From Bacilli bacterium (GTDB lineage: Bacteria; Bacillota_I; Bacilli_A; ML615J-28; CAG-698): a DNA stretch of 64,000 bases. Below the pieces are notes generated by a model that was given only the letters and a program-made list of their open reading frames with translations, had not been told where the DNA came from and searched no databases. This document shows, piece by piece, positions 1,695 through 61,541 of this stretch (position 1 is the stretch's first letter; every line of letters begins with the position of its first letter). The stretch is from assembly GCA_050953085.1 (NCBI GenBank), contig JBMNLX010000003.1, positions 57,757-121,756 on the forward strand, in the 5' to 3' direction. Position numbers and translations under genes: made by a program.

Positions 1695-1695
1695 T

Positions 1696-6699: not shown

Positions 6700-6715
6700 G
6701 TCTCCTTAAGCAAAA

Positions 6716-8155
6716 TTACTTGGTCTTTAACAGTTCCTTATATAACTCCAAATAAGACTTGGCCGATACGTTCCAGCTGAAGTCCCGTCTCATAATCCGT
6801 TTCGCGAGTTCCGCGTGTTTTTCCCGGTCCCGGTATAACCGGAGCGCCTCGCGGATCGCGGCCGTCATTTCGACGCCGCTATACTCGCGGAATACAAAAC
6901 CGCCGCCTTCTTCCCCGTCATAGGGTTTGATCGTGTCGTACAGGCCGCCGACGGCCCGGACGATCGGAATCGTCCCGTAACGGCTCGCGATCATCTGGCT
7001 TAATCCGCAGGGTTCCGCTTTCGAGGGCATCAACAGGAAATCGGCGCTCCCGTAGATTTTTTTCGAAAGGTTGATGTCAAACGTGATTAAAGTGCTCACC
7101 CTTCCCGGGTAACGGTTCATGAATTCCCGGAAGCGGTCCTGATAATATTCGTCCCCGCGGCCCAAAATGACCATCTGAACGTCTTCTTTCATAATCTCGT
7201 CGAACTGCTCGACCACAAGATCAAGCCCTTTGTGCGCGACGAGACGGCTAATGATGCAAATAAGCGGGGTGTCGGAATCGGAAGCGAGTTTAAGACTTTC
7301 CCGCAGCGCCTGCTTGTTTTCCGCCTTCCGTTCGAAAGTCTCGGCGGTATAGTTGGCCGCGAAATTCTTATCGGTTTCCGGGTTATAAAAATCAACGTCA
7401 ATGCCGTTGATGATGCCGGTGATTTTTTTATTATGCAGGCGGGTGATGTTTTCCAAGCCGTGGGCGTAATAAGCGGTCGTGATCTCCCGGGCATAGCGCG
7501 GGCTCACGGTCGTGACCGCGTCGCTGCAGACGATCGCGCCCTTAAGCAAATTAATCAACCCGTTATATTCAATTATTTCACAATACGTCGAATCAATGCC
7601 TAAAACATCGTCGGAAAACGGGAGATCGAAAATCCCCTGGTATTGGATATTATGAATCGTAAAAACCGATTTTATGTCAGTAAAGCGCCCGTTTTTCTTG
7701 TGCAGGATGTCAAGATAAATATTAGCCAGCGCCGCGTGCCAATCATGGGCGTGAATAATATCCGGAACAAAGCCGATAATCGGAAAAACGTCGAAAATGC
7801 TTTTTGAGAAAAAAGCAAAGCGCTCGCCGTCGTCATAATGGCCGTAAATCTCGTCACGGTCAAAGTAATATTTGTTATCGATAAAATAATAATCGACCTT
7901 GTCAAGCTTAAGCGTATAGACCCCGCAATAGAGATTGCGCCAGGCGAGAGCGACGGTCGTCGAGCCCAGGAATTTCAACTTTTTCCCGTATTTATCGATA
8001 ATCGCCTTATATAAAGGCATGATAACCCGGACTTTATAGGCGCGCGTCAAACCGTTAACGGCTTTCGGCAGGCTGCCGGCGACTTCCGCGAGTCCGCCCG
8101 TCTGGGCAAAGTTTTGGCATTCAGCCACAACAAACAAAACTTGTTTTTGTTTCAT
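6716..8155 (-). CDS. glgA: Glycogen synthase (ADP-glucose type)
   Basis: 479 aa. The N-terminal KxGGL-like AQTGGLAEVAGSLPKA motif is characteristic of bacterial GlgA. GT5/GT1 fold. Confidence 0.9.
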   Translation of the reverse strand: MKQKQVLFVVAECQNFAQTGGLAEVAGSLPKAVNGLTRAYKVRVIMPLYKAIIDKYGKKLKFLGSTTVALAWRNLYCGVYTLKLDKVDYYFIDNKYYFDRDEIYGHYDDGERFAFFSKSIFDVFPIIGFVPDIIHAHDWHAALANIYLDILHKKNGRFTDIKSVFTIHNIQYQGIFDLPFSDDVLGIDSTYCEIIEYNGLINLLKGAIVCSDAVTTVSPRYAREITTAYYAHGLENITRLHNKKITGIINGIDVDFYNPETDKNFAANYTAETFERKAENKQALRESLKLASDSDTPLICIISRLVAHKGLDLVVEQFDEIMKEDVQMVILGRGDEYYQDRFREFMNRYPGRVSTLITFDINLSKKIYGSADFLLMPSKAEPCGLSQMIASRYGTIPIVRAVGGLYDTIKPYDGEEGGGFVFREYSGVEMTAAIREALRLYRDREKHAELAKRIMRRDFSWNVSAKSYLELYKELLKTK

Positions 8156-9264
8156 ACGACACCATCTTTCACGATGTAAGCCAACCGGTTCTCATCGCCG
8201 ATTATTTCTTTTTTGTTGATAATTTTCACGTTTTTGTCGGTTATCACGTGATCAAGGACGGCCCCGTCCGCAACATATGTATTTTGCATCAATATCGAGT
8301 TTTTTACAACCGCGTTTTTGCCGATTTTCGCGCCGCGAAAGATTACTGAGTTCTCGACCCGGCCCTCGATCTCGCAACCGTCGGCGACGAGCGAATTCGT
8401 GATCTCGGCGGCGACGCCGTATTTTGTCGGGGCGGAATCGTGCACTTTAGTATAGATTGGTCGGCGCGGCTGCTGGAACAGTTCCGCCCGCACTTTCGGA
8501 TCCAAAAGTTTCATATTGATTTTATAATAACTGTCAAGCGAGCTAATGTTCCCGAAATAGCCGTCAAAACGGTAGCCGTAGACCTTGAGGACGTCAAGAT
8601 TATGACTGATGATGTCGCGGTTGAAACTGCGGAGATTGCGGTTGATCGCGTCAAGAACGAGCGACTGGAGAAGAGATTTTTTCATCACCCATGTATCGGC
8701 CGACACCTTGGCGTGACCGGCAAAAGTTTGATAAATCGACATATTGGTAATCCGGCCGTCGTCGTCAAGGGTAAGGACGTTCACCGGCATGTAATCGTCC
8801 GGAGTGACGTCGCACTCGCGATAGACGAAAGTTATGTCGGCGCCGGTCGCGAAATGCTGGTTGAAGATGTCGCGGTAATCAAGATTCGCGACGGCGTAGC
8901 AGTCGGTCAGGACGACATAGTCGGCGCGCGAGGAATTAATAAAGCTGATAATGCTTTTTAACGCCTCGAGCCGGGTGTTGTAAAAGTCGGCGCTGACGCC
9001 GAACGGGGGGAGGATTACGATTCCGCCGTTTTTCCGGGCCAAATCCCAGTCCTTCCCGGAACCGATATGGTCCATCAGCGACTGGTAATTATGCTTGGTG
9101 ACGATGCCGATGCGGGTGATATTATAATTCACCATATTGGACAACGCGAAATCAATCAAGCGGTAACGGCCGCCGATCGGCGTTGAAGCAATCGTCCGCC
9201 GGCGCGTGACTTCGAACAATTCCTTGTTGTGGATATTGGAAAATATCAAACCGAGTATATTCAT
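8152..9264 (-). CDS. glgD: Glucose-1-phosphate adenylyltransferase regulatory subunit GlgD
   Basis: 370-aa nucleotidyltransferase-like protein between glgC and glgA, the Firmicutes glgBCDAP arrangement. It has a left-handed beta-helix C-terminus but lacks full catalytic conservation. Confidence 0.8.
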   Translation of the reverse strand: MNILGLIFSNIHNKELFEVTRRRTIASTPIGGRYRLIDFALSNMVNYNITRIGIVTKHNYQSLMDHIGSGKDWDLARKNGGIVILPPFGVSADFYNTRLEALKSIISFINSSRADYVVLTDCYAVANLDYRDIFNQHFATGADITFVYRECDVTPDDYMPVNVLTLDDDGRITNMSIYQTFAGHAKVSADTWVMKKSLLQSLVLDAINRNLRSFNRDIISHNLDVLKVYGYRFDGYFGNISSLDSYYKINMKLLDPKVRAELFQQPRRPIYTKVHDSAPTKYGVAAEITNSLVADGCEIEGRVENSVIFRGAKIGKNAVVKNSILMQNTYVADGAVLDHVITDKNVKIINKKEIIGDENRLAYIVKDGVV

Positions 9265-9265
9265 C

Positions 9266-10459
9266 TTACAGCACGAGATCCTTTTCTATTATTTCCCCCG
9301 CCGGTACGGTCATGTCCTCGCCGATCGTGACGTTGTGAGCGACGAGCGTAATCGGCGCGTTCTCCCCTCTTTCCGCGCCGACGACGGCGTTCTTTTTAAT
9401 CGTCACGTTCTCGTCGATGATCGCGTAATTAACGGTCGCCCCCGCTTCAACCGCGGTGTTTGCGAAAATTATTGTGTCCTTGACGACCGCGCCTTTTTCG
9501 ACGCGCACGTTGTTGGAAAGCAGCGAATCAATAACCGTTCCCTCGATATAACAACCCTCGGTAATAATCGAGTTCTCAATTTTGGCCCCGTCCGCGATAA
9601 ACTGGGGCGGTAAGGCGAAATTGCGCGAGTAGATCCGCCAGTCGGGGTCATAAAGGTTGAAGGCGGGATTTTCGCCCAACAAGTCGGCGTTCGCTTCCCA
9701 AAGGCTCGCGACCGTACCGACGTCCTTCCAATACCCGTTGAATTCGTACGCGTAGACGGCTTCGCCTTCTTCCACCATCCTCGGGATGATGTTCTTCCCG
9801 AAATCGTGGGCGGAAAAAAGATTGGCCTCGTCTTCTTCCAAGTGACGGTACAGGACGGCTGCGTCGAAAATGTAGATTCCCATCGACGCTCTCGTGCTTT
9901 TCGGGTTTTTCGGTTTCTCCTCAAAACTAATTACCCGGCCGACCTCGTCGGTGTTCATAATTCCGAAGCGGCTCGCTTCCGATAGCGGGACATTGATGAC
10001 CGCGATCGTCAGGGCGGCGTCGTTTTGCTTATGAAAGCGAAGCATTTTCCCGTAATCCATTTTATAAATATGGTCGCCGGACAAAACCAAAACATATTCG
10101 GGATCGTAACGTTTCAAAAAGTGGATATTCTGATAAATCGCGTTGGCCGTGCCCCGATACCAATCGATTTTGTTTTTTCCCTGGTACGGCGGTAAAATAT
10201 GAACGCCGCCGAAATTTCGGTCCAAATCCCAAGGCTTGCCGTTGCCGATATACTCGTTTAAAATCAGCGGCTGGTACTGGGTAAGGACGCCGACGGTGTC
10301 GATTCCCGAGTTGACGCAATTGGAAAGCGGAAAATCGATAATTCGGTATTTTGCCCCGAACGTGACGGCCGGTTTCGCCAACCGATCGGTAAGGGCGTGC
10401 AACCGGCTTCCCTGACCCCCGGCCAAAATCATGGCGACGCATTCTTTTTTTCTTATCAT
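9266..10459 (-). CDS. glgC: Glucose-1-phosphate adenylyltransferase
   Basis: 397 aa with the N-terminal [10 protein letters not shown] motif and an ADP-glucose pyrophosphorylase fold. Confidence 0.9.
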
Positions 10460-10461
10460 AT

Positions 10462-12321
10462 CTATTCCTTTCCCATCTTTTTAAGTACGATAAACGATAA
10501 TTTCCCAATGTTAATAACGAGCGACTCGGGATAGCCGTGGCTCGGAACCGCCTCGGTCGAAACCGTCCCGTTCGCCGTCCCCGCGCCGCCGTAAATCCGG
10601 CGGTCGCTCGAGAATACCTCGCGATAACGACCCGAAGGCGCCCCCAGTCGGTAACGCTCCCAGCCGATGCCCGCAAAATTTACGACGATCAAAAGCTCGC
10701 TCTTCCCGGCGATTCGGAGAAAACTGATTACGTTTCTTCCGGCGTCGTCGCTTTCGATCCACCGGAACCCCTCCCAGGAAAAGTCGTTCTTCCATAGACT
10801 CTCATTTTTTAGATAAAACCGGTTCAAGTCGCGGATATAGCGGCGCAGTTTCCGGTGCGCCGGATATTTAAGCAAGAGCCAGTCTAATTCGCGGCGGTAA
10901 TCCCACTCGATAAACTGCCCGAACTCATATCCCATGAAATTAAGTTTTTTCCCCGGATGGGTCATCATATAACCGTAGAATGCCCGGAAGTTGGCGAATT
11001 TTTCCCAGTAATCGCCCGGCATTTTGTCGAGGATCGATTTTTTCCCGTGAACGACCTCGTCATGGGAAATCGGCAGGATAAAGTTTTCGCTGAAGGCGTA
11101 ATAAAAGGAAAAAGTCAGCTGCCGATGATTATGGCTGCGAAAAACCGGGTCGGTGGAAATATAAGACAACGTGTCGTTCATCCACCCCATGTTCCATTTG
11201 AAGTTAAAACCGAGACCGTCGTAATGAACGGGTTTCGTGACGCGGGGAAACGCGGTCGACTCCTCGGCGATCATCATCGCCCCGGGGAAAAGCCCAAACA
11301 CCTCGGTGTTAAGTTGCTTGAGAAAATCGATCGCCTCGAGATTGTGGTTCCCGCCGTGAATGTTCGCTTCCCATTCCGTCCTGTCATAATCGAGATAGAG
11401 CATCGAGGCGACGGCGTCGACGCGCAAGCCGTCGATATGATATTTATCAAAATAAAAAACGGCGTTGGAAATCAGGAAAGATTTGACCTCGGGTTTGGCA
11501 TAATTAAAGGATCGCGTCCCCCAGCCCTTATGCTCCATGCGCAACGGGTGCGGGTCCTCGTAAACGTAGCCGCCGTCAAATTCGATTAGACCGAAATCGT
11601 CTTTCGGGAAATGCGCCGGAACCCAATCGAGAATGACGCCGATGCCGTTTTTGTGCGCCTCGTTTACCAAGTACATAAAATCGGCGGGGGTGCCGTAACG
11701 GGACGTGACGGCGTAATACCCGGTAACCTGGTAGCCCCACGAGCCCGAAAACGGGTGTTCCATTACCGGCATGATCTCGATATGGGTATATCCCATATCC
11801 TTTACGTACGGGATAAGCTCCTCCGCGATCTTCCGGTAATCGAACGGCTCGCCTCCGGGATAACGGCGCCAGGAACCGAGGTGAACCTCGTAAATATTGA
11901 CCGGTTTACTGTATACCGGTTCCCGGTCGCGTTTTTCCATCCACTCGTCGTCGGTGAACCGAAACCCCGAAAGATCGTACACTTTCGAGCAGGTATTGCC
12001 GTCGGTCTCGTTATGGTAGGAATAAGGGTCCTGCTTAAAAAAATCCCGGCCTTTATTCGTTATGTAGTATTTATAATTCGCGTAAACGGGCGCGTCTTCG
12101 ATAACCGCTTCCCAAATACCCTCGGCGGTTACTTTCGTCATCGGGTGGGAGGCGGTATTCCAATCATTGAAATCCCCGACTACCGATACAAACTCAGCAT
12201 GGGGAGCATAAACGCGAAAAGTCACGACCGGCCGGCCGTTCTTAATCGTATAATGGCTCCCCAAGTATCGATATGCCCGTGACGAAAAACGGTAATGAAA
12301 ATCGAGTCTGAATTTTTCCAT
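10462..12321 (-). CDS. glgB: 1,4-alpha-glucan branching enzyme
   Basis: 619 aa. GH13 branching-enzyme catalytic regions ([18 protein letters not shown]), an N-terminal CBM48-like domain, and first position in the operon. Confidence 0.9.
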
Positions 12322-12394
12322 AAAGTCTCCTAGCCAATAACATTATACAATAAATTGCCGTTTTAGGCAATAAATATAAAGGCAGGAGCGCTTC

Positions 12395-13861
12395 TTATCG
12401 CCGGTATAATTCGGTCAGGCCGCGAATTCGGGCGGCCAGTTTATCGCTCAAGGCTTTGGGCCGCAGGCGCCACACCCAGTTTCCTCCCAGAGTGGACGGG
12501 CAGTTAAAACGGGCGCGATCGTCCAAGAACAAATAATCCTGAATCGGGATAATCGCCAGACGGCAGATCGACCCCAGGCAGGCGGAGATCGCCCGGCGAA
12601 CCGCCCGCCGGCCGCGCCCCCTGACCTGCATATATTTACAAAAATACTTATAATCTTCTTTGCTTAGGGTTTTAAGCCACCCCCTCAAGGTGGAATTGTC
12701 ATGCGTGCCGGGGTAGACGACGGCGTTACGCGTGTAGTTATGCGGGGCGTATTCGCTGTCGGTTTTGTGATCAAAACCGAATTGCAGGATCTTCATGCCC
12801 GGAAAACCGCAAGCCTCGCGCAACTCATGCACCTCGGGCGTCATAAACCCCAAATCCTCGGCAATAATTTCGGCCTCGCCCAACTCTTCTTTAACCCGGG
12901 CGAACAATTTATAGCCCGGGCCCTTAAACCAGCGCCCTTCCCGGGCGTCGCGCGCGTCGGCGCGGACCGTGTAGAACGATTCAAACCCGCGGAAATGATC
13001 GATCCTGACGACGTCAAACATCTCGAGGGCGTTTTTTATTCTTCTTATCCACCAGGAAAAACCGTCGCTTTCCATCGCCTCGTAATCATAAATCGGGTTG
13101 CCCCATAATTGGCCGGTTTCCGAATAAAGATCGGGCGGAACCCCGGCCACGACCTCCGGGCAGCGGCGCTCGTCAAGCAGCCAGTATTCCGGCTGCGACC
13201 AAACATCGGCGGAATCATAAGAAACGTAAATCGGCATGTCGCCGATGATTTTTATGCCGCGTTCGTTGGCGTAAGCCTTAAGCCGGAACCATTGGCGGAA
13301 AAACATGTGCTGGACAAATTTCCAAAACTCGACCTCGTCTTCGCGTTCGTTCAAAAAATCCGCCAGCGCTTTTTTACTGCGAATTCTGTAAGGATAATCC
13401 CACTTCGACCAGTCGACTTCCGGTTTCAAAGATTTGATCGCCATGAACAAGGCATAGTCGTCAAGCCAATGACGATGTTTTTTCTTGAATTTCTCGAACC
13501 CGGCGTCGGCGGAAAACCGTTGAAAAGCTTTTTTTAATACCGGGACGCGATGACGGTACTGATGAGCGTAATCGACTTTATCTGCCGGCGCGGCCGCCAA
13601 CGGTTGGCAATCCCCGGGGGTAAGAAGCCCTTCTTCGATAAGCAAGTTTAGATCGATAAAATAGGGGTTACCGCCGAAAGCGGAAAAAGACTGATAAGGC
13701 GAGTCGCCGTAAGAGGTCGGCCCCAAGGGCAACACCTGCCAGTATTTCTGACCGGCTTTTTCTAAAAAATCGACGAACTTAAACGCTTCGGCGCCCAAAG
13801 AGCCGATGCCGTATTCTCCCGGCAACGAACTGATATGAAGTAAAATGCCGCCTGATCTCAT
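12395..13861 (-). CDS. malQ: 4-alpha-glucanotransferase (amylomaltase)
   Basis: 488 aa with the GH77 N-terminus MRSGGILLHISSLPGEYGIGSLG and YWQVLPLGPTSYGDSPYQ. A paralog lies at 59305..60765. Confidence 0.85.
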   Translation of the reverse strand: MRSGGILLHISSLPGEYGIGSLGAEAFKFVDFLEKAGQKYWQVLPLGPTSYGDSPYQSFSAFGGNPYFIDLNLLIEEGLLTPGDCQPLAAAPADKVDYAHQYRHRVPVLKKAFQRFSADAGFEKFKKKHRHWLDDYALFMAIKSLKPEVDWSKWDYPYRIRSKKALADFLNEREDEVEFWKFVQHMFFRQWFRLKAYANERGIKIIGDMPIYVSYDSADVWSQPEYWLLDERRCPEVVAGVPPDLYSETGQLWGNPIYDYEAMESDGFSWWIRRIKNALEMFDVVRIDHFRGFESFYTVRADARDAREGRWFKGPGYKLFARVKEELGEAEIIAEDLGFMTPEVHELREACGFPGMKILQFGFDHKTDSEYAPHNYTRNAVVYPGTHDNSTLRGWLKTLSKEDYKYFCKYMQVRGRGRRAVRRAISACLGSICRLAIIPIQDYLFLDDRARFNCPSTLGGNWVWRLRPKALSDKLAARIRGLTELYRR

Positions 13862-49250: not shown

Positions 49251-50631
49251 TTGTGAATATATTATGATAATTTCATATAGAGTTATATAATGATAATTTC
49301 ACTAAATACAAAGGTTAATTGTATTAGCGTAGGCAACCCTTAATTTTGTAATTTAAGCCCTTCTTTGATATCATATGGATTAATATGGATATGTATCAAC
49401 GGAGGGAAGACACATGAGAAAGGTCGAACTAAGAATGAACGAGCAAATGAAGTATGAAATTATCAGAAGAGTAGCTTTTAAAGAAATCAGCGTCCACAGA
49501 GCAGCGGTCCAGCTTAACTGTACCGTAAGAACCGTCTATAACCTCGTCAAAAAGTATCGGGAACATGGTAAGGCCGGCTTTATCCACGGTAACAGGAACC
49601 GAAAACCGGCCGCTACCATGAGCCCAAAACTTGAACAAACCATTGTTTCGTTTTATATGCAAAAATGCGAAGGTGCCAATTTTCTACACTTCCAGGAGTT
49701 GCTGGAAGAGATAAAAGGCATTAAAGTCTCTTATTTCAAACTCTACGCGCTTCTGCGTAAGCATGGGATCATATCTCCCAAGTGTCATAGGATTACCCGT
49801 AAAAAACACACGCAAGAGACTTTAAAGGGTTATTACAACATATTTCACCAGGTATTGACCAAATACGGCATACCGGCGAAAATTTTGGCCGATAACAGGT
49901 CAATCTTCAATTACAAGCTTAAGAACAGCCATTCTAAAGAAAAAGACACGCATACGCAATTCGGATATGCCTGCCATCGGCTCGGGGTCGATCTTGACAC
50001 GACTTCCGTCGCCCAAGCAAAGGGCAGAATCGAAAGAATGTTCGGTACCCTCCAAAGCCGGTTGGTTACGGAACTTAAGATGGCAGGCATATTCGATATC
50101 GATGCGGCTAATGAGTTCTTGAAGGATTTTGTCCCAAAATTCAACGAGCGTTTCGCGCTCCCCATCGATTATCTCACATCGGTTTTTGACGAGAACATCG
50201 ATCAAGAAACCATCAATAACACATTAGCCGTCATCAGCGCAAGAAAAGTCGATAACGGTAATACGATTAAGTACAAAAATAAGTATTATCACCTGTATGA
50301 CTTTGATGGCAACATGATGCCATTCAAACCCAAAACGGTATGTATCGTTATGGAAACTTACGACGGATCTCTCATCGCCTCGGTTAACGATGATCTTTAC
50401 GGGTTGGTAGAGCTTGAGGTCCATCACGAATTTTCCAAGAACTTTGACACGAAAAAACCGGAAAAGAAACGCTATACCGGCCATAAGCCCAAGGATTGTC
50501 ATCCCTGGACCTATAAAAGCTATCTGGCCAGAAAAAGAAGGCGTTACAAGTCCAGGGCGGAAACCCTTGCTTAACAAGTACTGGACAAATAATCAGGTAT
50601 TTTTTGTGAAATTTTCATTATATATTGACAG
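49251..50631 (+). mobile_element. Intact ISNCY-like insertion sequence (about 1.38 kb) between rpsL and rpoBC
   Basis: Imperfect terminal inverted repeats: 21 of 25 positions match between TTGTGAATATATTATGATAATTTCA on the left and the reverse complement of the right end. A single transposase ORF. The first 180 bp are identical to a second partial copy at 61856..62035. Confidence 0.7.
49414..50574 (+). CDS. ISNCY-family DDE transposase (HTH + integrase-core)
   Basis: 386 aa. N-terminal MRKVELRMNEQMKYEIIRRV...FIHGNRNRKP pattern, typical of proteins annotated as ISNCY-family transposases. rve-like core. Confidence 0.7.
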   Translation: MRKVELRMNEQMKYEIIRRVAFKEISVHRAAVQLNCTVRTVYNLVKKYREHGKAGFIHGNRNRKPAATMSPKLEQTIVSFYMQKCEGANFLHFQELLEEIKGIKVSYFKLYALLRKHGIISPKCHRITRKKHTQETLKGYYNIFHQVLTKYGIPAKILADNRSIFNYKLKNSHSKEKDTHTQFGYACHRLGVDLDTTSVAQAKGRIERMFGTLQSRLVTELKMAGIFDIDAANEFLKDFVPKFNERFALPIDYLTSVFDENIDQETINNTLAVISARKVDNGNTIKYKNKYYHLYDFDGNMMPFKPKTVCIVMETYDGSLIASVNDDLYGLVELEVHHEFSKNFDTKKPEKKRYTGHKPKDCHPWTYKSYLARKRRRYKSRAETLA

Positions 50632-50678: not shown

Positions 50679-53600
50679 CTACTCTTCGTCTTCTTCAACA
50701 TTAATAACGTAATCGGCGTCGATAATTCCCGTTCCGGCAGGGATTAAGCCGCCGATAATAATATTTTCTTTAAGTCCTTCAAGATAGTCTTTCTTACCGC
50801 GGATGGCGGCTTCCGTAAGAACGCGCGTCGTTTCCTGGAAGCTTGCCGCGGAAAGGAAGGAGTCGGATTTCAACGAAGCGCGGGTAATGCCCAAGAGCAT
50901 GGATTTTACTATCGGCACCTCGATGTTGTTTTTCCGGCAGTCTTCGATAATATCGTAGAGCTCGTTTTTCGATATTTGCGTGCCCGGTAGAAGATTGGTC
51001 CCGCCTTCGTGCACGACGACCACTTTTTGAAGCATCTGTCGAATTATGATTTCAATATGCTTGTCGGCGATTTCAACGCCTTGGGAACGGTAAACTTTCT
51101 GCACCTCGCCGAGGATGTATTTGCCGACATCGTCGACGGTGCTGACTCTTAGAAGTTCCTTCGGGTGAATCATTCCCTCGGTCAAGGGCTGACCGGCTTT
51201 TACCCGGTCGCGCTCGTGCACGATCGGGACTTTCCCGAATTCGGTAAGATATGTTTTCTCTTCCAGGTTGTTTTTGATCTTGATCTCAAACCTGTTGTCT
51301 TTATCGTGACGGATGGAAGTAACGATGCCGTCGATTTCGGTAATCGTTGCCTTAAGTTTCGGTTGGCGCGCTTCGAAAAGTTCCTGAATCCGGGGCAAGC
51401 CCTGGGTAATGTCCTCGGCCGCGACGCCGCCGGAATGGAACGTACGCATCGTAAGCTGCGTGCCCGGCTCGCCGATCGATTGAGCGGCGATAATACCGAC
51501 GACCTCGCCGATCTCGACGATCTCGCTCGTCGAAAGGTCGCTGCCATAACAGTGGACGCAGACGCCGCTTTTCGCATCGCAAGTGATCAGCGTGCGAATC
51601 TCCACTTCCTTCACACCAGCCTTCACGATTCTCTCCGCCAAATCGTCGTCGATATATGTTTGCGCGGCGACCATGACTTCGCCCGTTTTCGGATTTATAA
51701 CCGGCTTGTTGGTGAAACGCCCGCGAATCCGGTCGTAAAGGGGGATGTTGCTTTCCTCAAGCGCGGTCACGATCATTCCCTTATCCGTGCCGCAATCCTC
51801 CTCGGTAACGGTGACGTCCTGGCTCACGTCAACGAGGCGGCGGGTAAGATAGCCCGACTCGGCCGTTTTCAAAGCCGTGTCGGTCGAGCCTTTCCGGGCG
51901 CCGTGCGTCGAGATAAAGAACTCGGACATCGTCAGTCCCTCGCGGAAGGAAGCCCTGATCGGGATATCCATGATCTCGCCGTTGGGCTTGGCCATTATGC
52001 CGCGCATCCCCGAAAGCTGAACGAAGTTGGAAATATTACCGCGGGCGCCGCTGTCGCTCATCATATACAAATGATTAGTCGCAAAATCCTTTTGAACCTC
52101 GGCGTGAATCGCGTTTTCAAGCTTCTCCTTCGCTTTTTGCCAGACCTCGATAACGCGCTGGCTGCGTTCTTTTTTCGTCATATAACCCTTGCGATAAAGG
52201 CTGTCGTATTTATCGACCTTCTCCTCGGCTTCCGCCAAGACTTCTTTCTTGACGTCAACGACCCTGATGTCCTCCGCGGCGATCGTGATGCCGGAAATCG
52301 TGGAGTACTTAAACCCAAGGTCTTTCATCCGGTCGAGAGTTTTCGACGTCTCCGCAAGTTTAAACTTCTTAAACACCTCGGCGATAATCTGGCTTAAAAA
52401 CTTCTTCCTGAAAGGGTGGGGCGACTCCATCCTGTTTAGGAGATTGCGGAAGGTTTCGCCCGGTTTTAAATCCCGGACGGAAACGAAATATTTATCCGGC
52501 GTTTTATCGGTGAGATTTTCCAAAGTCGCCTCGTTAATGTAAGGAACATAAGGCGGCTCCTGCGGAAAAATCGTATTAAAGATAATTTTGCCGTAAGTCG
52601 TGACCAAGTACTTTTTTTGTTGTTCCGGCGTGAAATGCGGGTTATTAAAAATCTTAGCCGGAATCAAGATTCGGGTATGGAAATTAATATCGCCGTTTTC
52701 GTAAGCAAGCTCGACCTCGCTCAGCGAGGAATAGACTTTTCCTTCGTTCTCTTCCCCGCGTTTTTCGATCGTCAGGTAATAGTTGCCCAAGACCATGTCC
52801 TGCGAGGGGGTAACGATCGGTTTTCCGTCCTTCGGCGCAAGGATGTTTTTCGAGGCCAGCATCAAAAGCCTCGCCTCGGCTTGCGCCTCTTCCGAAAGCG
52901 GGACGTGAACCGCCATCTGGTCGCCGTCGAAGTCGGCGTTAAACGCCGGCGTGACCAGGGGATGCAAGCGGATCGCTTTTCCCTCGACCAGTTTCGGCTC
53001 AAAAGCCTGGATTCCAAGCCGGTGCAGCGTCGGCGCGCGGTTTAAAAGCACCGGGTGCTCGACAACGATCTTTTCCAGCTCGGTCATGGCGATCGGGTCG
53101 CCCGTTTCGATCATTTCCTTCGCCCGTTTCAGGCTGATCCGGTTTCCGCCCTCGGGATTTTCTCTGTCGCGTTCAAGAATCGCGTTGATGATAAAGGGTT
53201 TAAACAAAATCAACGCCATTTCCCGCGGTATCCCGCACTGATACATCTTAAGGTCGGGACCGACGACGATAACGCTCCGGCCGGAGTAATCGACGCGCTT
53301 ACCGAGAAGGTTTTGCCGGAAGCGGCCCTGCTTTCCGCGCAAAAGGTCGGACAGGGACTTAAGCGGCCTGTTTCTCTCCACGACCACCTTCTTGTTTCGC
53401 TTGCTGTTGTCAATCAGGGCGTCGACCGCCTCCTGAAGCATCCGTTTCTCGTTTTTCGTAATCAAGCCCGGGGCGCGCTGCTCGTATTGTTTCTTCAAAC
53501 GGTTATTGCGGTTTAAGATCCGCCGGTATAGGTCGTTTAAGTCGGTCGTCGCGAAACGGCCGCCGTCAAGTTGGACCATCGGTCGAAGATCGGGAGGCAA

Positions 53601-56600
53601 GACAGGGATAACTTCCATGACCATCCATTCCGGTTTGTTTCCGGATTGTTGAATCGCCTCGATAACGTCAAGCCGCTTGATTAGTTTCTCGCGCTTTTGC
53701 TTGGTAGCTTTCTTTAACTCCTCGCGTAGCTGCTCGGCCGTTTCTTTTAAATCCAGGTCCTGCAATAGTTTTTTAATCGCTTCAGCGCCGGTAAGCGCCT
53801 TAAACTTCGAGGAACCGAATTCCCTCTGAAACTGGCTGTGTTCCTGCTCGGTGAGGATTTGCCCTTTATGCAGGATATCGACGGATCCCGGGTCAACGAC
53901 TATATAGGAGGCGAGATAAACGATTTCCTCGACTTCTTTCGTTTTCATGTCGAGCAACAACGCGATTTTCGAAGGGATGTTCTTCAAAAACCAAGAATGA
54001 ACGACGGGCGCGGCGAGTTCGATATGACCCATTCTTTCTCTTCTGACTTTGCTTTCGGTCAGCTCGACGCCGCACCGCTCGCATTTCGTCTCGCCTTTCG
54101 GCGTAATCGAACGCCGGGATTTCCCGCAGGCGCATTGATAGTCCTTCGTCGGCCCGAATATTACCTCGCAAAACAAGCCGTCGCGTTCCGGCTTTAGCGT
54201 GCGGTAATTTATCGTTTCGTGCTTTTTTACCTCGCCGTGGGACCAGCCGCGGATTTCCTCGGGGGAAGCGATGCCAATTTGAATGTATTTATATTTATTC
54301 TTGTTTTCTTGTTTCTTATCGCGCGGCGGCGCGCTTTCCACGAGACTTCTGTTGGCGACGTCTTCGCCTGTTTCAGCGTCAATAAGTTTCACGCTCAAGC
54401 CCAAGCCTTGCAATTCCTTAACCAAAACCCGGAAAGATTCTGGAATTCCGGGGTTGGGAATCGGGTCGCCGTCGACGATCGCCTTGTATACTTTATTCCG
54501 GCCGATAATATCGTCGGACTTGATCGTGAGCATTTCCCGAAGCGTATAGGCGGCGCCGTAAGCCTCCAAAGCCCACACTTCCATTTCCCCGAAACGCTGG
54601 CCGCCGTTTTGGGCTTTTCCGCTCATCGGCTGCTGCGTTACCAGGGCATAGGGACCCTCGCTGCGCGCATGAATCTTATCGTCAACCATGTGCGCGAGTT
54701 TGATCATATACATGATGCCGACGGCGATACGACTGTCAAACGGTTTGCCCGTCCGCCCGTCGTAGAGAACCATTTTGCCGTCGGGCTCCATTTTCGCTTC
54801 TTCCATGATCTCCCTTAAGTCCTCGTTCTCGACGCCGTCGAAAACGGGGGAAGCGATATAGCAGCCAAGCTTTTTCGCGGCCATCCCCAGATGGATCTCC
54901 AGAACTTGACCGATATTAAGCCGCGAGGGTATCCCCTGCGGGTTTAGCATGATGTCGATCGGCGTGCCGTCTTCCATATACGGCATATCCTCTTGGGGAA
55001 GAATCCGGGAAATAACGCCTTTGTTTCCATGGCGCCCGGCCATCTTGTCGCCCTCGCTTATCTTGCGTTTTTGCACGATATAAACGCGAACGACCTCGTT
55101 GACTCCCGGCGGTAATTCCGCGCCGTCTTTGCGACGAAAATGCTCGATACGGTGGACGATGCCGCCGCCGCCGTGCGGGACGCGCAGGGAGGTGTTGCGC
55201 ACGTCTTTGGAACTGTCGCTGAAGAGCGCTTGGGAAAGCCGTTCTTCCGGCGTCGGGTCGGTCTGTCCTTTCGGGGTCACTTTCCCGACAAGTATATCGC
55301 CTTCTTTTACCTCGGCGCCTAAGCGGACGATGCCGTATTCGTCGAGGTTGGCGATCGCTTCTTTGCGATCGTTTTCCAGGTCGCGGGTGATTTCTTCCTT
55401 GCCAAGTTTCGTGTCGCGAACCTCGACCTCGTATTTTTCGATATGAATTGATGTATAAACGTCATCCTGAACCAAACGCTCGCTTATGACGATCGCGTCC
55501 TCGTAGTTGTAACCGTCCCAGGTCATAAAAGCGACCGTGACGTTTTTCCCAAGCGCGAGCTCGCCGCCGTCCATCGCGGGACCGTCGGCGATGATGTCGC
55601 CGCGCTTGACGGACTCGCCCTTCCTGACAATCGGTTTTTGATTGAAGCAGGTGGAATGATTGGAGCGTTCGTATTTGACCAGGTTATATTCTTTCAGTTT
55701 ACCGCCGGCCTCGCGAAGGATTATCTTCCGGGAGTCGACGTATTCGACAACCCCGTCTCTCTCGCAAACGACGGCGGTGCCGGAGTCTTTCGCCGCTTTT
55801 TCCTCGATCCCGGTCCCGACATACGGGGCCTCCGTCTGTAGCAGCGGGATTGCCTGCCGTTGCATGTTGGCCCCCATCAGGGCGCGGTTTGCGTCGTCAT
55901 GCTCGAGGAAGGGGATGCAGGCGGTCGAAACGGAAACGATTTGCTTCGGCGAGACGTCGATCAAATCGACTGTTTCTTTCGGCACCTCAAAGGTATCGCC
56001 GCCGAAACGGGCGACGACGACATCGTCGATTATTTCGTTTTTCTCGTTCACCCGGATATTCGCCTGGGCGATATGATACTGTTCTTCCTTATCGGCGGTC
56101 AGATAAATTATTTCATCGGTTATCAACGGATTCTTTTTCGCTCTTTGCTTTACTTTAAGATAAGGCGTCTCGATAAAACCGTACTGGTCGACGCGGGCGT
56201 AAGTCGCAAGAGAGTTAATCAAGCCGATGTTCTGCCCTTCCGGCGTTTCGATCGGACAAATCCTCCCGTAGTGGGAAACGTGAACGTCGCGAACCTCGAA
56301 AGTCGCCCTTTCCCGGTTTAAGCCGCCGACGCCTAAGGCGCTGATGCGCCGTTTATGCGTGAGTTCCGACAGGGGATTGATTTGATCCATGAACTGCGAC
56401 AGCTGGCTGCTGCCGAAAAACTCGCGGATTGACGAAGTCAACGTCCGGATGTTGATCAAGTTTTGCGGAATGATGCTGCGCGGGTCGGACGATGTCGACA
56501 TCCGATCGCGAACGTTCTTCTCCATTTTCGCAAGCCCAATCCGGAATTGGTTTTGGAGAAGCTCGCCGATAAGCCGCAGGCGACGGTTGCCCAAATGGTC

Positions 56601-57806
56601 GATATCGTCAATTTTGCCGATATCGTCGTGCAGGTTGATATAATAACCGACCGCCGCGAAAATATCGGACAAAGTTATATGATTGGCGGTTTCGCTCTGA
56701 TCGTTGCCGATGAGCCGGAAAGTTTCCTTTAAACCGTGATGTTTTTCATACTCGATGTCGAGGATTTCCAAAACGACGGAATTCCCGACGAGCATTTGCT
56801 CGTATTCCTTCCGGACGCGGATCAGGCGACGGTTTTTAGCCAAAAATTCGCACGCCTGGGCGCTGATTTTTTCCCCGGTCGAAAATACCACCTCGCCGGT
56901 CTTGGAATCAACGATATCGGAAGCGAAAGCGCATTTATCATAGCCGATATCCTTAACGCGAGCAAGAACGTCGAGTTTTTTATTCACCTTGTACCGCCCG
57001 ACGTTCGCAAGGTCATATCGGCGAGTGTCGAACAAACGGTTGCACAGGTAATTTCTCGCGCCTTCCGGCGTCGCTTTCTCGCCGGGACGCATTCTTTCGT
57101 AAAGCTGCTCCAAGGCGTCGTCGGAACCGAAAGATTCGTCTTTATCGAAAGTGTTCCGGATATACTCGCTGTCGCCGTAAAGCTCGATAATCTCGCGGTT
57201 GGAATTAAGGCCCAAAGCGCGCAAAAACGTCGTCAAAGGTATTTTCTTTGACCGGTCTAGTTTCGCATACCAGATATCCTTCGAGCCCATCTCGAGTTCG
57301 ATCCAGGCTCCGCGGGTCGGGATGATCTGCCCGTAATACTGGATTTGGCCTTGTTTTAGCAGGGTAGCGTAAAAAACCCCGGCTGAACGGATGATTTGCG
57401 AGACAATGACGCGTTCCGCGCCATTTATAATAAAAGTACCCGAGGGGGTCATAATCGGAAAATCGCCGAGGAAAATCTTTTGTTCCTTGATTTCCTTGGT
57501 CTCTTTATTCACAAGCCGGACGTCGACCTTCAAGGCCGATGCGAAACTAACGTCGTTCTTTTTGCTCTCCATCGGACTGTATTTCGGCGGCTCGAATTCA
57601 AAATCACCGAAATAAAGCTCCAATTTTTCCCCGTGATCGCGAATCGGGGAAATCTCCGCAAACAGTTCTTTAAGTCCGGTGGTCATAAACCATTCGAACG
57701 ATTTTAATTGTACTTCGATTAAATTGGGGAGCTCGACGTTAGTCCTGACGCGCGAATAATTCCGGCGAACCCGATTTTTCCCATAGGTAACGTTTTTCCA
57801 AATCAA
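50679..57806 (-). CDS. rpoBC: DNA-directed RNA polymerase beta-beta' fusion (rpoB-rpoC in one reading frame)
   Basis: A single 2375-aa ORF. The N-terminal roughly 1170-aa part is rpoB, judged from rpoC typically being about 1200 aa. It ends ...[20 protein letters not shown] short linker, [24 protein letters not shown], joins it in-frame to the rpoC N-terminus [39 protein letters not shown]. Direct translation around 54300 to 54350 confirms there is no stop, no RBS and no ATG at the junction. Confidence 0.85.
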
Positions 57807-57886
57807 ATGATTTCCACCTCACATTTTTAATGAAAAGGACTGCAAAAGCACATTATATCGCATTTTATTATGTTAACACAAACTTG

Positions 57887-58495
57887 TCAAAAAGTCAAAG
57901 GTTTTTTGATATAAAAAACACAATATCCTTTTTTCACGAGAACGGTCTCCAAAAAACCGGATAAAGCGGCCGCTTTTTCCATCATCCTCTTCGCTCCCTG
58001 CCGTTTTCTCATGACCGCCCAGAGATATCCGCCGGGCGCGAGTCGTTCGTAACCTTGCGCGAAGATGGCTTCGACAGTCGCCATCCCTGCCCGAATCGGG
58101 GGGTTAGTGATAATGACATCAAAAAGACCTTCCGCGTTTTCATACAAATCACCGGCGTACGCTTTCGCGTTTTCAAGTTTCATCTCAAGAGCGCTTCTTC
58201 GCGCGAGATCGACGGCCCGTTTGTTAACGTCGCTTAGCTCGACCCGAAAACCCGGGTACGCCTTGGCCAACGCAAGACCAATTATCCCGTAACCGCAGCC
58301 GATATCAAGAGCCCGGACATCCTTTTTTTCCGGCGGGACGAAGGACTGAAGCAAAAGGTGCGTCCCGAAATCGACTCGCTCGCGCGCGAAAACACCGCGG
58401 TCTGTATACATAACCAAACGATGGCCGCGGTAATCGTAGGTTATTTTCCGGATCTCGCTCTTTAATCCCGGGTCGTTTATATAGTAATGACTCAT
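57887..58495 (-). CDS. Class I SAM-dependent methyltransferase (YbxB/RsmC-like)
   Basis: 202 aa with the SAM-binding motif LDIGCGYGIIGLALA and an NPPI catalytic motif. It occupies the Bacillus ybxB position between rplL and rpoB. Confidence 0.75.
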   Translation of the reverse strand: MSHYYINDPGLKSEIRKITYDYRGHRLVMYTDRGVFARERVDFGTHLLLQSFVPPEKKDVRALDIGCGYGIIGLALAKAYPGFRVELSDVNKRAVDLARRSALEMKLENAKAYAGDLYENAEGLFDVIITNPPIRAGMATVEAIFAQGYERLAPGGYLWAVMRKRQGAKRMMEKAAALSGFLETVLVKKGYCVFYIKKPLTF

Positions 58496-59304: not shown

Positions 59305-60765
59305 CTATCTCCTGTATAATTTGGTCCAAGCGGAAATTTTCGCCGCTAATTCGGCGTTCGTTTGACCCTTTTTCAAGCGCCATCGCCAGTTACCGCCCAA
59401 AGTCGCCGGCGTGTTCAAGCGCGCCTCGGCCCCCAGTTCGAGATAATCCTGCATCGGAATAATGGCGATATCGCACGCGGAAGCAAGCGCCGCTTTAATA
59501 AATCTCTCGACCGCTTCGCCAGGCTCGCGAATCCCCAAATATTCATAAACGAACGCCAGATCGGGAGGCGAAAGCGACGCGAACCAAGCTTTTGTCGGGG
59601 GATTATCATGCGTTCCCGGATAGCATACAGCGTTTTTCACATGATTATGCGGAAGATATATGCTATCGTCCCGATGATCGAAAGCAAACTGCAAAATCTT
59701 CATTCCCATAAAACCGGCCTCGTCGCGCAGTTTATACACGTCTTCCGTAAGATAACCCAAGTCCTCGGCAATAATAGGTAGCTCGCCGAGTTTTTCCGCT
59801 ATTTTTCGGAATAAACCGCTGCCCGGCCCCTTTATCCACGCCCCATGGCGCGCGGTGTCGGCCTGGCGGGGAATCGCGTAATAGGCCTCGAACCCGCGGA
59901 AATGATCAATTCGCAAACAATCATACAGGGACAAGGCGTGTCTAAAACGTTCGACCCACCAGGAATAATCCTCCTCAGCCATTTTTGCGTAATTATATAA
60001 CGGGTTTCCCCAAAGTTGTCCTTCGGGTGAAAAGGCGTCGGGAGGGCAACCGGCGACCGAAAGCGGCGCGAGGTTGCTGTCGAGCTGCCAATTAAGGGGG
60101 GCGGCCCATACGTCGCTTGAATCATACGCCACATAATAGGGCAGGTCGCCGATAATCTTTATCCCCGCGCGGTTTGCGTAGGCTTTTAACCGGCGCCATT
60201 GTTTGTGAAAGAAAAACTGGAGAAACTTCCAAAAACCAATCTCTTCCCGTTTGGCGGCGATAAAGTCATGAAAGGCCGCGCCTTTACGGAATTTAAGGGG
60301 CTCATCCCACCGGTCCCAAGCCCCCTCCGGCGTTTCGTTTTTAATCGCCATAAATACGGCGTAATCTTTTAACCAGCTTTCGTTTTCGACATCAAATTCC
60401 CGATAAGCCTTGTCGTGACGGAACCGTCCGTATGCTTTCCTTAACACTTTATAGCGATTTCGGTATTGATAGAAATAATCGATATCCCCTTCGTCCGTCT
60501 TCATCAAATTATAATCCTCGGGCGCGAGTAGCCCGTCCTCGCGCAAGAAGTCAAAATCGATATAATAGGGATTTCCGGCAAACGCGGAAAAAGTCTGGTA
60601 GGGGGAGTCGCCGTATGTCGTCGGACCCAAGGGCAACACCTGCCAATACTTCTGCCCGGCGGCCGCCAGGAAATCGATGAATTCATAGGCTTCTTTCCCC
60701 AAAGTCCCGATCCCATATGGATTGTTTAACGAACTTACCGGCAATAATATCCCACTTCCGCGCAT
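59305..60765 (-). CDS. malQ: 4-alpha-glucanotransferase (amylomaltase), second paralog
   Basis: 486 aa, beginning MRGSGILLPVSSLNNPYGIGTLG. Clearly homologous to the protein at 12395..13861; the identity level was not computed. Confidence 0.85.
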   Translation of the reverse strand: MRGSGILLPVSSLNNPYGIGTLGKEAYEFIDFLAAAGQKYWQVLPLGPTTYGDSPYQTFSAFAGNPYYIDFDFLREDGLLAPEDYNLMKTDEGDIDYFYQYRNRYKVLRKAYGRFRHDKAYREFDVENESWLKDYAVFMAIKNETPEGAWDRWDEPLKFRKGAAFHDFIAAKREEIGFWKFLQFFFHKQWRRLKAYANRAGIKIIGDLPYYVAYDSSDVWAAPLNWQLDSNLAPLSVAGCPPDAFSPEGQLWGNPLYNYAKMAEEDYSWWVERFRHALSLYDCLRIDHFRGFEAYYAIPRQADTARHGAWIKGPGSGLFRKIAEKLGELPIIAEDLGYLTEDVYKLRDEAGFMGMKILQFAFDHRDDSIYLPHNHVKNAVCYPGTHDNPPTKAWFASLSPPDLAFVYEYLGIREPGEAVERFIKAALASACDIAIIPMQDYLELGAEARLNTPATLGGNWRWRLKKGQTNAELAAKISAWTKLYRR

Positions 60766-60854: not shown

Positions 60855-61541
60855 TCACCAATTAATAAGCGAAAATTTTATTTCGTCTTTATCTTTCAGA
60901 GGAATATCGGAAATACCTACCAACGAAGAGAGACCGTTGACATTGATTTGCCAGAAGGTCTCGGGATAATCCTCGGCGTTGATATCGCAAATCGTTGTGA
61001 TATAAAAACCGTAGGATTCTTCTCTTCCGCCCATTTGGATTTCCTCGTGTTCCTGCAACAGACCCAAAAGCGTGTCGCCCTCGCGAAAACTTATTTCGCC
61101 GTTAAACACCTCTTCTTTTTCATAATTCACGACGATGACCGTAATCGTCCCTTTCGCGTCGTTTTCCTTAATAAGCGAAAATTTTATTTCGTCTTTATCT
61201 TTCAGAGGAATATCGGAAATACCTACCAACGAAGAGAGACCGTTGACATTGATTTGCCAGAAGGTCTCGGGATAATCCTCGGCGTTGATATCGCAAATCG
61301 TTGTGATATAAAAACCGTAGGATTCTTCTCTTCCGCCCATTTGGATTTCCTCGTGTTCCTGCAACAGACCCAAAAGCGTGTCGCCCTCGCGAAAACTTAT
61401 TTCGCCGTTAAACACCTCTTCTTTTTCATAATTCACGACGATGACCGTAATCGTCCCTTTCGCGTCGTTTTCCGGATTGTCACACCCGGCAAGGGCGAAA
61501 AACGCCAAAAACAATAAGAAAACCAAAAAAATCTTTTTCAT
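60855..61541 (-). CDS. Lipoprotein with two tandem DUF4430-like (transcobalamin-like) domains; putative cobalamin-binding surface protein
   Basis: 228 aa. Lipobox LAGC. Two identical 102-aa repeats ending FWQINVNGLSSLVGISDIPLKDKDEIKFSL, matching the DUF4430 C-terminal pattern (W.y.vNG...vGa..y.lkdgD.I.f). Preceded by a cobalamin riboswitch. Confidence 0.6.
   Translation of the reverse strand: MKKIFLVFLLFLAFFALAGCDNPENDAKGTITVIVVNYEKEEVFNGEISFREGDTLLGLLQEHEEIQMGGREESYGFYITTICDINAEDYPETFWQINVNGLSSLVGISDIPLKDKDEIKFSLIKENDAKGTITVIVVNYEKEEVFNGEISFREGDTLLGLLQEHEEIQMGGREESYGFYITTICDINAEDYPETFWQINVNGLSSLVGISDIPLKDKDEIKFSLINW
60862..61473. repeat. Perfect 2 x 306-bp tandem duplication inside the lipoprotein gene
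   Basis: 60862..61167 and 61168..61473 appear identical at every position checked. The duplication is in-frame (102 codons). Confidence 0.9.

Follow-up and report, generated by a model that had tools for sequence, protein, structure and literature searches.

An rpoB-rpoC fusion allele beside split alleles in an uncultured species of Bacilli

To our knowledge, natural fusions between RNA polymerase's beta and beta' subunits are usually quoted for Helicobacter/Wolinella and Wolbachia only, and as rare, stable markers. The occurrence of one reading frame for both subunits in a 64-kb stretch of DNA from a Bacilli bacterium (the window, analysed here at its full length) raises the question whether such a gene is real, by which event it came into being and whether its product can serve as the sole source of both subunits. 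Analysis of the open reading frame, the comparison with closely and distantly related loci and the search for the same allele in independent assemblies indicate that the fused gene is, with high probability, real and a derived form of the beta/beta' locus of an uncultured species of Bacilli, which would yield a working fused enzyme. At the DNA level the allele is documented by the open reading frame with its domains, the exact difference of 35 bp to split alleles, the ancestral polarity of the split state and the recurrence on several SNP backgrounds.

One reading frame for beta and beta'

The initial annotation had proposed an in-frame rpoB-rpoC fusion, a single gene of 2375 amino acids, and the open reading frame, its translation, which runs uninterrupted across the beta/beta' junction, and the Pfam domains confirm this structure and place it on the minus strand, which had been left unstated (Table 1). 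A complete set of beta domains (Rpb2 domains 1, 2, 3, 45, 6 and 7; aa 28-1142) is followed by a complete set of beta' domains (Rpb1 domains 1-5; aa 1170-2270), and the E-values of these matches lie between 1e-15 and 1e-135. GEMEVWA at aa 1073, the zinc finger CxC...CxxC at aa 1225-1245 and NADFDGD at aa 1623 are intact motifs. Within the 64-kb window the rpoB half and the rpoC half are each present in a single copy. By the criteria of reading frame, junction, motifs and reproducibility in seven further assemblies, where the frame is equally intact, the allele is confirmed as a genuine bacterial beta-beta' fusion gene (RpoBC).

Table 1. Coordinates of the fused gene, its junction and its surroundings in the window
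Feature	Position	Strand	Remarks
Fused rpoB-rpoC ORF	50679..57806	minus	2375 codons and stop, TTG start; from ORF list and translation
rpoB-derived part	54309..57806	minus	aa 1-1166; 99.7% identity to P0251, a separate RpoB of 1171 aa, over its residues 1-1166
rpoC-derived part	50679..54308	minus	aa 1167-2375 and stop; 100% identity to P0243, a separate RpoC of 1210 aa, over its residues 2-1210
Junction peptide	54285..54356	minus	aa 1151-1174, ending in ENKNKYKY; native beta tail and native beta' N-terminal tail
Deletion scar	54308..54309	minus	split allele has 35 extra bases, CGAGGATTGCAAGAGTAAATCGAGGTGAAAATTTG, between these bases
In-frame GTG (Val1156)	54339..54341	minus	rpoC start in the NCBI annotation of GCA_049652465.1 (P0242); upstream Shine-Dalgarno unconvincing
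Shine-Dalgarno GAGGTGG	57814..57820	minus	7 nt upstream of the TTG start (TTG at 57806)
Promoter-like site TTGACA-17-TAAAAT	57862..57890	minus	11/12, consensus match only; just upstream of the fused gene
Class I methyltransferase (MTS family)	57887..58495	minus	upstream neighbour; conserved beside rpoB in relatives
HTH_23/28/29 protein	49414..50574	plus	downstream neighbour on the opposite strand to the fused gene; between rpoC and rpsL
184-nt direct repeats	49250-49433 and 61856-62039		bracket the whole 12.4-kb rpoBC segment
cotJA/B-cotJC spore-coat pair	1134..2208		

At the fused junction the DNA reads GATAAGAAACAA followed directly by GAAAACAAG. The stop codon, Shine-Dalgarno sequence and initiator methionine that had been reported as absent from this site are indeed absent, as all of them lie within the 35 bases that the split allele has in addition. 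ATG does not occur at the junction, and of codons that could serve as a start the linker contains in frame the GTG at aa 1156 alone, 11 codons upstream of the scar. The 24-residue peptide described as a linker is present exactly as given, but is not a new linker, since it consists of the native tails of both subunits minus six residues, namely RGLQE and the initiator methionine. Approximately 32 residues separate the last conserved beta element (...LSVKLI) from the first conserved beta' element, and an AlphaFold2 model of a 364-aa junction fragment, built on an alignment of 72 sequences, is poor (pLDDT 62, pTM 0.41).

Origin by a 35-bp deletion

Two distinct genes, an rpoB of 1171 aa and an rpoC of 1210 aa, are found in five assemblies with 99.8-100% DNA identity to the window, L084 (GCA_030057775.1), L085 (ERZ27257473), L086 (GCA_041676565.1) and L094/L095 (SRR28714612/13), and the sole difference of these conspecific loci at the junction is the 35-bp segment. 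This segment is composed of the codons for RGLQE, TAA, a 14-nt spacer (ATCGAGGTGAAAAT) with the Shine-Dalgarno sequence GAGGTGA and the TTG start of rpoC; in the split allele rpoB accordingly ends in ...DKKQRGLQE and TAA, with rpoC in frame +2 relative to rpoB. Over 7.1 kb, the split locus L085 and the fused locus L091 differ by one synonymous SNP and the indel, and the fusion is thus accompanied by no compensatory change.

The polarity of the change can be read from the outgroups, all of which are split: the sister species (L087) has a spacer of 32 nt, and L088 and L090, at approximately 75% identity, have spacers of 39 and 41 nt. Their Shine-Dalgarno sequences resemble GAGGTGAAAA (AGAGGTGAAAAT or TGAGGTGAAAAA), their rpoC genes start with TTG or ATG, and separate rpoC N-termini have been seen in further relatives as well. 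With split outgroups that carry a related Shine-Dalgarno sequence and spacer, the split state is ancestral and the fusion a derived in-frame deletion; an ancestral fusion that was later split by an insertion is rejected on the same grounds. A fusion that serves as a lineage marker would be common to the whole clade and absent outside of it. As conspecific assemblies, the sister species and the relatives at approximately 75% identity are all split, the fusion is not lineage-wide, and the suggestion that it would be taxonomically informative does not hold. Comparison of the fused and split sequences finds no microhomology at the breakpoints of the 35-bp segment, and the near-repeats AGAAACAA and GAAAACAA are both retained, so that a slipped-strand deletion between repeats was discarded as well.

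A single deletion of 35 bp removed the last five codons of rpoB, its stop codon, the Shine-Dalgarno sequence and the start codon of rpoC and, as 35 equals 2 modulo 3, at the same time placed rpoC into the frame of rpoB. Translation from the rpoB start would then produce one beta::beta' chain of 2375 residues, in which the flexible native tails of both subunits may act as a tether, and together with alpha2 and omega it would form a core enzyme that works. The beta' subunit is essential. With the good beta' signals deleted and no second rpoC in the window, the strain would have to use the fused product. From this essentiality and the precedent of E. coli and Helicobacter (PMC1750930), a single polypeptide of approximately 265 kDa is presumably made, functional in active RNA polymerase and the sole source of beta and beta'. 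The fusion is probably roughly neutral.

Recurrence of the fused allele and alternative readings

The intact frame of 2375 codons recurs in assemblies from ENA (L081, ERZ2648049), NCBI (L082, GCA_049274365.1; L096, GCA_049652465.1), Logan (L083, ERR7015690) and JGI (L091-L093; 3300064082, 3300025657, 3300025683). L081-L083 encode the exact protein of the window, the fused allele occurs on at least five SNP haplotypes, and the contig names, in NODE_ and k141_ styles, point to different assemblers. The window represents a further distinct genome, with a 306-nt duplication compared to the split L084 and a 243-nt deletion compared to L081. The fused allele is about as frequent as the split allele among the cluster members listed. 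Between the indel and the SNPs at nucleotides 310/311 of the gene the four-gamete rule is violated, which could reflect chimeric consensus contigs rather than recombination, as all sources are metagenome assemblies, in which consensus contigs of mixed strains can be chimeric. A habitat was recovered for one sample alone, JGI 3300025657, which derives from an anaerobic digester in Oakland (PMC10159854). Scans of metagenome-contig DNA with a degenerate pattern matching both alleles and with a plain right-flank pattern gave no matches in that collection, and the population counts thus rest on contigs encoding the proteins and on protein-cluster members. In a scan of genome contigs with the junction fragment, the FGEMEVWA pattern, which is conserved universally, dominated the matches; these were all relatives with 45-57% identity, spread over many phyla, and close relatives were missed.

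That the genes are truly separate and 35 bases were lost in silico by assembly, polishing or basecalling might be suspected from the conspecific assemblies with stop, Shine-Dalgarno sequence and TTG at the junction site, from the approximately 5x coverage of NODE_448, the closest match to the window, and from the frequency of spurious junction-spanning reading frames in public data, where dozens of singleton proteins of 286-637 aa combine an rpoB C-terminal with an rpoC N-terminal domain. Such an artefact is nevertheless extremely improbable, as the same deletion is found in the seven other assemblies, which stem from four data sources and apparently different assemblers, on the different haplotypes and always with an intact frame. 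The 35-bp block, moreover, contains no homopolymer and is not flanked by a repeat of k-mer length. A de Bruijn assembler cannot join the flanks unless reads lack the block. Relatives with a stop codon, ribosome binding site and start codon between the two parts had been named in the initial annotation as a sign of an assembly or basecalling error. Such relatives do exist, but the error does not follow from them, because the deletion is clean, reproduced by several assemblers and projects, and no homopolymer slip.

On the other hand, the fused frame could be real while separate beta' (and beta) is still supplied, by initiation at GTG1156, by proteolysis of the tether or by a second, split copy. 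The GTG lies in frame close to the scar and PGAP called rpoC there, the tether consists of two presumably flexible, charged tails, and the 184-nt direct repeats around the 12.4-kb segment could mediate a tandem duplication that is collapsed in the assemblies; both alleles do occur on shared SNP backgrounds, which such a duplication would also produce. Yet pairing with an assumed Firmicute-type anti-Shine-Dalgarno sequence is weak upstream of the GTG, with -2.0 kcal/mol against a background mean of -3.1, compared to -7.6 for the rpoB start and -7.2 for the rpoC start of the split allele; a second copy is absent from the 64-kb window, and no assembly examined carries both alleles on one contig. 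As fused enzymes work uncleaved in Helicobacter as well as in E. coli with the engineered fusion, as far as these are described in the sources cited (PMC1750930, PMC9696931), a separate supply is considered very unlikely. Equally, a fused allele that is real and the sole copy may be mildly deleterious and transient, a young hitch-hiker in digester populations. This would fit with its absence from the relatives compared outside the species, with the near-isogeny of fused and split loci, which indicates a very recent event, and with separate chains being the rule, for which an advantage in vivo has been presumed (PMC1750930). Its presence in a minimum of eight genomes or assemblies, which come from several projects and represent several SNP backgrounds, at a frequency similar to the split allele among the cluster members listed, and the persistence of similar fusions in other phyla on many long contigs render transience unlikely.

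Fusions in other bacteria and significance of the allele

A beta-beta' fusion is, as had been stated for Helicobacter and Wolbachia, a known kind of event. In Helicobacter/Wolinella a natural fusion likewise consists of one open reading frame, beta followed by beta', with the native termini joined (Zakharova et al. 1998, cited in PMC1750930; Zakharova et al. 1998, 1999, cited in PMC9696931, PMC1557499 and PMC7483510), and in both this group and the present allele presumably one tethered polypeptide enters the core enzyme. According to these citing papers, however, the Helicobacter/Wolinella fusion of approximately 2900 aa is fixed family-wide and treated as a rare, stable phylogenetic marker, whereas the present fusion is a within-species presence/absence polymorphism of 2375 aa with a defined origin in a 35-bp deletion. 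In Wolbachia the two largest subunits have also been fused naturally, in an independent event (Lane & Darst 2010, cited in PMC7483510), and the fusion is fixed in this genus of alphaproteobacterial endosymbionts and with no near-isogenic split counterpart in the literature consulted. The same join of C- to N-terminus has been engineered in E. coli and, as cited, assembles into an active enzyme (Severinov, Mooney, Darst & Landick 1997, cited in PMC1750930; mentioned also in bioRxiv 10.1101/2021.11.05.467461). While that fusion is artificial and was tested in vitro or in the laboratory, the present allele is spontaneous in natural populations, and the activity of the tethered E. coli enzyme provides a mechanistic basis to expect function of the Bacilli fusion.

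Furthermore, a database search recovered 20 or more additional fused proteins of full length that are divergent from one another (representatives at 50% clustering), and full-length fused rpoBC frames are found beside unfused relatives in metagenome-assembled genomes of uncultured Verrucomicrobiia, Bryobacterales, Patescibacteria, Nitrospirota and NPL-UPA2. In Verrucomicrobiia and Bryobacterales, fused and unfused forms fall into one protein cluster of 90% identity. The Verrucomicrobiia fusion, present on 24-30 contigs, with cluster members on contigs of up to 981 kb, arose by substitution of the stop codon and loss of the start (TAA to CAA and ATG to ACG) over a 3-nt in-frame spacer, unlike the deletion in Bacilli. 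Fused and split Verrucomicrobiia genomes share 88.8% DNA identity and belong to different species, whereas the Bacilli forms are conspecific.

Tentatively, rpoB-rpoC fusion may, instead of being rare and quasi-irreversible, recur frequently and segregate within species as a state that is nearly neutral or, under certain conditions, advantageous, a generalization that is possible but rather doubtful at present. If true, it would undermine the fusion's use as a marker in phylogeny, and if both alleles are kept side by side in digesters, tethering may tune the assembly of RNA polymerase or the beta:beta' stoichiometry under some conditions. The fusion is caught essentially at birth, with the ancestral and the derived allele in one species and the exact mutation known. 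The main value of the finding lies in this nearly isogenic natural pair, a clean natural experiment on whether tethering has any cost or benefit, and by deletion of the same 35 bp an isogenic test could readily be set up in a Firmicute. On a more practical level, annotation pipelines mishandle the fused allele, as one NCBI genome (GCA_049652465.1) has rpoC called from the internal GTG and no rpoB call; with rpoB and rpoC being widely used marker genes, their fusion can distort trees as well as counts of single-copy markers.

Concerning the surroundings, the downstream HTH_23/28/29 protein has 386 aa in the window and 467 aa in the fused loci L081 and L091, and is absent from the sister species. 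The host had been described as a Clostridia-like spore former. Near-identical proteins are named 'Bacilli bacterium' or 'Bacillota bacterium' by NCBI and the nearest named rpoB relatives, at 63-67% identity, are Haloplasma and Acholeplasmataceae, so that an affiliation with Clostridia finds no support, while the spore former remains plausible given the cotJA/B-cotJC spore-coat pair near the start of the window.

The fused gene and its junction

The rpoB-rpoC gene is one open reading frame of 2375 codons with a TTG start, and its translation is free of stops across the junction. Pfam recovers all domains of beta and beta' (see the table), every match far exceeding its own gathering threshold, and GEMEVWA, the N-terminal zinc finger of beta' and NADFDGD are all retained. 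The uninterrupted fusion described in the initial annotation is consequently borne out by reading frame, translation, domains and motifs, the minus strand being the sole correction, and the gene shows all those hallmarks of an RpoBC fusion that are open to testing in silico. No second rpoB or rpoC was found within the 64-kb window.

A search with the whole protein led to a cluster, drawn at 90% identity, whose 108 members are of three kinds, namely fused proteins of 2375 aa, separate RpoB of 1171 aa and separate RpoC of 1210 aa. Junctions were compared on DNA retrieved for both fused and split loci. The split allele reads ...GATAAGAAACAA CGAGGATTGCAAGAGTAA ATCGAGGTGAAAAT TTG GAAAACAAG..., while the window and all fused loci read ...GATAAGAAACAA GAAAACAAG..., a difference of exactly 35 bases that spans the codons RGLQE, the TAA stop, the rpoC TTG start and, between stop and start, 14 nt of spacer carrying the Shine-Dalgarno (SD) sequence GAGGTGA. 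In the split allele, coordinates put rpoC in frame +2 with respect to rpoB; as 35 nt equal 2 modulo 3, the deletion brings both genes into one frame, with a total loss of six residues. Microhomology is absent from the breakpoints of the deletion. The 24-residue string regarded initially as a linker is present, but since these 35 bases are the only difference at the junction, it consists of joined native tails, the beta tail abutting the beta' N-terminus (ENKNKYKY…), and not of a new linker.

Features of the window discussed in the text
Feature	Position	Strand	Remark
Fused rpoB-rpoC ORF	50679..57806	minus
Rpb2_1, 2, 3, 45, 6, 7	aa 28-1142 of fused protein		all beta domains
Rpb1_1 to 5	aa 1170-2270 of fused protein		all beta' domains
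24-residue string	aa 1151-1174; 54356..54285	minus
Deletion scar	between 54309 and 54308
Promoter-like TTGACA-17-TAAAAT	57890..57862		upstream of fused gene
SD GAGGTGG	7 nt ahead of TTG start		fused gene
cotJ ORFs	1134..2208	minus	170-aa ORF with CotJA and CotJB matches, then CotJC/Mn-catalase ORF
Glycogen cluster	2384..13861 and 59305..60765	minus	complete
184-nt direct repeat	49250-49433 and 61856-62039		99% identical, 12.6 kb apart
HTH_23/28/29 transposase-like gene	49414..50574	plus	386 aa; between rpoC and rpsL
DUF4430 ORF	60855..61541	minus	228 aa, two-domain
Perfect 300-nt tandem duplication	60862-61161 and 61168-61467		period 306, within DUF4430 gene
Cobalamin riboswitch	61625-61795	minus	ahead of DUF4430 gene

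Fused and split alleles in one species

The scar together with an intact 2375-codon frame recurs in seven further assemblies (ENA ERZ2648049, locus L081; NCBI GCA_049274365.1, L082; Logan ERR7015690, L083; JGI 3300064082, 3300025657 and 3300025683, L091-L093; NCBI GCA_049652465.1, L096), which with the window represent at least five SNP haplotypes. The split allele is found in five assemblies (L084, L085, L086, L094, L095), and fused and split loci are 99.8-100% identical overall; the fused L091 and the split L085 are distinguished across 7.1 kb by the indel and one synonymous SNP. The window stems from yet another genome, with a 243-nt deletion relative to L081 and a 306-nt tandem duplication relative to the split L084.

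The concern that an assembly or basecalling error had produced the fusion is reasonable in general, as dozens of singleton predicted proteins of 286-637 aa (P0001-P0087), located on long contigs and one of them annotated in the Lupinus albus genome, combine an rpoB C-terminal with an rpoC N-terminal domain and are probably frameshift or contamination artefacts mimicking fusions. It does not apply here: the missing block is clean, lacks a flanking repeat of k-mer length, unlike basecalling or de Bruijn errors, and is identical across several pipelines, so that an artefact is considered highly improbable. The Bacilli gene is a genuine in-frame fusion made by a 35-bp deletion.

All more distant relatives are split, with a spacer of 32 nt, SD AGAGGTGAAAAT and a TTG rpoC start in the sister species (L087, GCA_028701235.1), and spacers of 39 and 41 nt, SD TGAGGTGAAAAA and ATG starts in L088 and L090 (about 75% identity). 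Separate RpoC proteins of 82-84% identity equally begin with Met and a short Lys/Asn-rich tail. These outgroup junctions and N-termini show the split arrangement to be ancestral and the fused allele to be a deletion derived from it. With split loci in conspecific strains and in more distant relatives, the fusion is not a clade-wide marker and not, as initially suggested, taxonomically informative.

The indel occurs in all four combinations with two paired SNPs at gene nt 310/311 (K104/G104). That the identical deletion arose twice without microhomology is unlikely; the likely explanation is that strains have recombined or that the metagenome consensus is chimeric, and whichever applies, the fused allele is present on several backgrounds in several projects, JGI 3300025657 deriving from an anaerobic digester (PMC10159854). 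The fused allele thus segregates beside the ancestral split allele within one uncultured Bacilli species.

The host, initially called a Clostridia-like spore former, does not bear out the first attribute: near-identical proteins are named 'Bacilli bacterium' or 'Bacillota bacterium' by NCBI sources, and among named relatives, Haloplasma and Acholeplasmataceae have the closest RpoB (63-67% identity). Spore formation is possible, as the window carries a cotJA/B-cotJC pair of spore-coat markers. Considering also the class A PBP, Lgt, the glycogen genes and the Firmicute-type L10 and L20 leaders encoded in the window, the host may fairly be described as a lineage of Bacilli that is walled and possibly forms spores. 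RpoB, with 1171 aa against 1305-1342 aa in relatives (P0132-P0134) and 1471-1485 aa in the Acholeplasma type, is 130-310 residues shorter than in the nearest relatives, a difference implying that an insertion domain was gained or lost along particular lineages.

Translation of the fused chain and fusions in other lineages

With the deletion, all good signals for translating beta' separately were lost. A single GTG of the tether lies in frame (aa 1156) and shows an anti-SD pairing energy of -2.0 kcal/mol against a gene-wide background mean of -3.1, while the two real starts reach -7.6 and -7.2 kcal/mol, all computed with an assumed Firmicute-type 16S tail. In L096 (locus 1536-8663), PGAP calls a 1220-aa rpoC from this internal GTG and annotates no gene over the 3.5-kb rpoB part despite the intact frame, an annotation pitfall for fused rpoBC genes. 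As beta' is essential, we infer that fused-allele strains live on a single functional beta::beta' chain.

A tether of approximately 32 residues, made up of native tails, connects the final conserved element of beta (...LSVKLI) with the first one of beta'. Such a tether is plausibly workable, because an engineered E. coli fusion is described to assemble into a functional polymerase and Helicobacter to use a fused chain naturally (PMC1750930; PMC9696931; PMC1557499; PMC7483510). The predicted structure of the junction fragment is a poor model (pLDDT 62). Fusion would impose 1:1 synthesis of both halves, dispense with translational re-initiation at rpoC and pre-pay the beta-beta' association step of assembly.

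Natural fusions named in the literature consulted, those of Helicobacter/Wolinella and Wolbachia, are viewed as rare, stable genetic changes and clade markers (PMC1557499, PMC7483510, PMC9696931), whereas the Bacilli fusion is not a clade-wide feature; a preprint calls rpoB/rpoC 'occasionally fused' (10.1101/2021.11.05.467461). An exhaustive HMMER search with the junction among 1.84 billion representatives (50% clustering) matched mid-protein in at least 20 fused proteins that are longer than 2000 aa, NADFDGD being kept in 17 of those listed. Beyond the Bacilli case, full-length fused proteins come from MAGs labelled Verrucomicrobiia and, at 2265-2937 aa and across several phyla, from MAGs labelled Patescibacteria (P0129/P0287) and Nitrospirota (P0292) as well as from 90%-identity clusters with members named Bryobacterales/Acidobacteriia (P0128, P0278-P0286, clustering with unfused members) or NPL-UPA2 (P0122). 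The Verrucomicrobiia fusion (2660 aa; L097/L098 versus L099-L101) differs from the Bacilli deletion within one species in that codon substitutions, TAA>CAA and ATG>ACG over a 3-nt in-frame spacer, separate fused from split genomes that are 88.8% identical at the nucleotide level. Comparison of these junctions confirmed its independent origin; the fused form occurs on 24-30 contigs, with cluster members on contigs of up to 981 kb. While fusion per se will not surprise an RNA polymerase specialist, the natural occurrence of fused and split alleles as an almost isogenic pair, and the hint of frequent recurrence of such fusions, merit follow-up.

Gene neighbourhood

The 184-nt repeats flank a DUF4430-GH77-lgt-methyltransferase-rpoBC-HTH segment, whose duplication or excision they could mediate; one copy lies just upstream of a promoter-like site of the rpsL operon, the other between rplL and the cobalamin riboswitch. 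The transposase-like HTH gene, 467 aa long in L081 and L091, is shortened by an in-frame 243-nt deletion around 49809 and is absent from the sister species, where rpsL directly follows rpoC. The glycogen cluster encompasses branching enzyme, GlgC, a GlgD-like protein, GlgA, phosphorylase, amylase and a 4-alpha-glucanotransferase of family GH77, of which a further copy is situated between rplL and rpoB. GH77-lgt is an unusual insertion in the rplJL-rpoBC neighbourhood, with none in L088 and L090. The tandem duplication in the DUF4430 gene, which encodes 126 aa in the conspecific L084 and L094, could be a very recent event or an assembly artefact.
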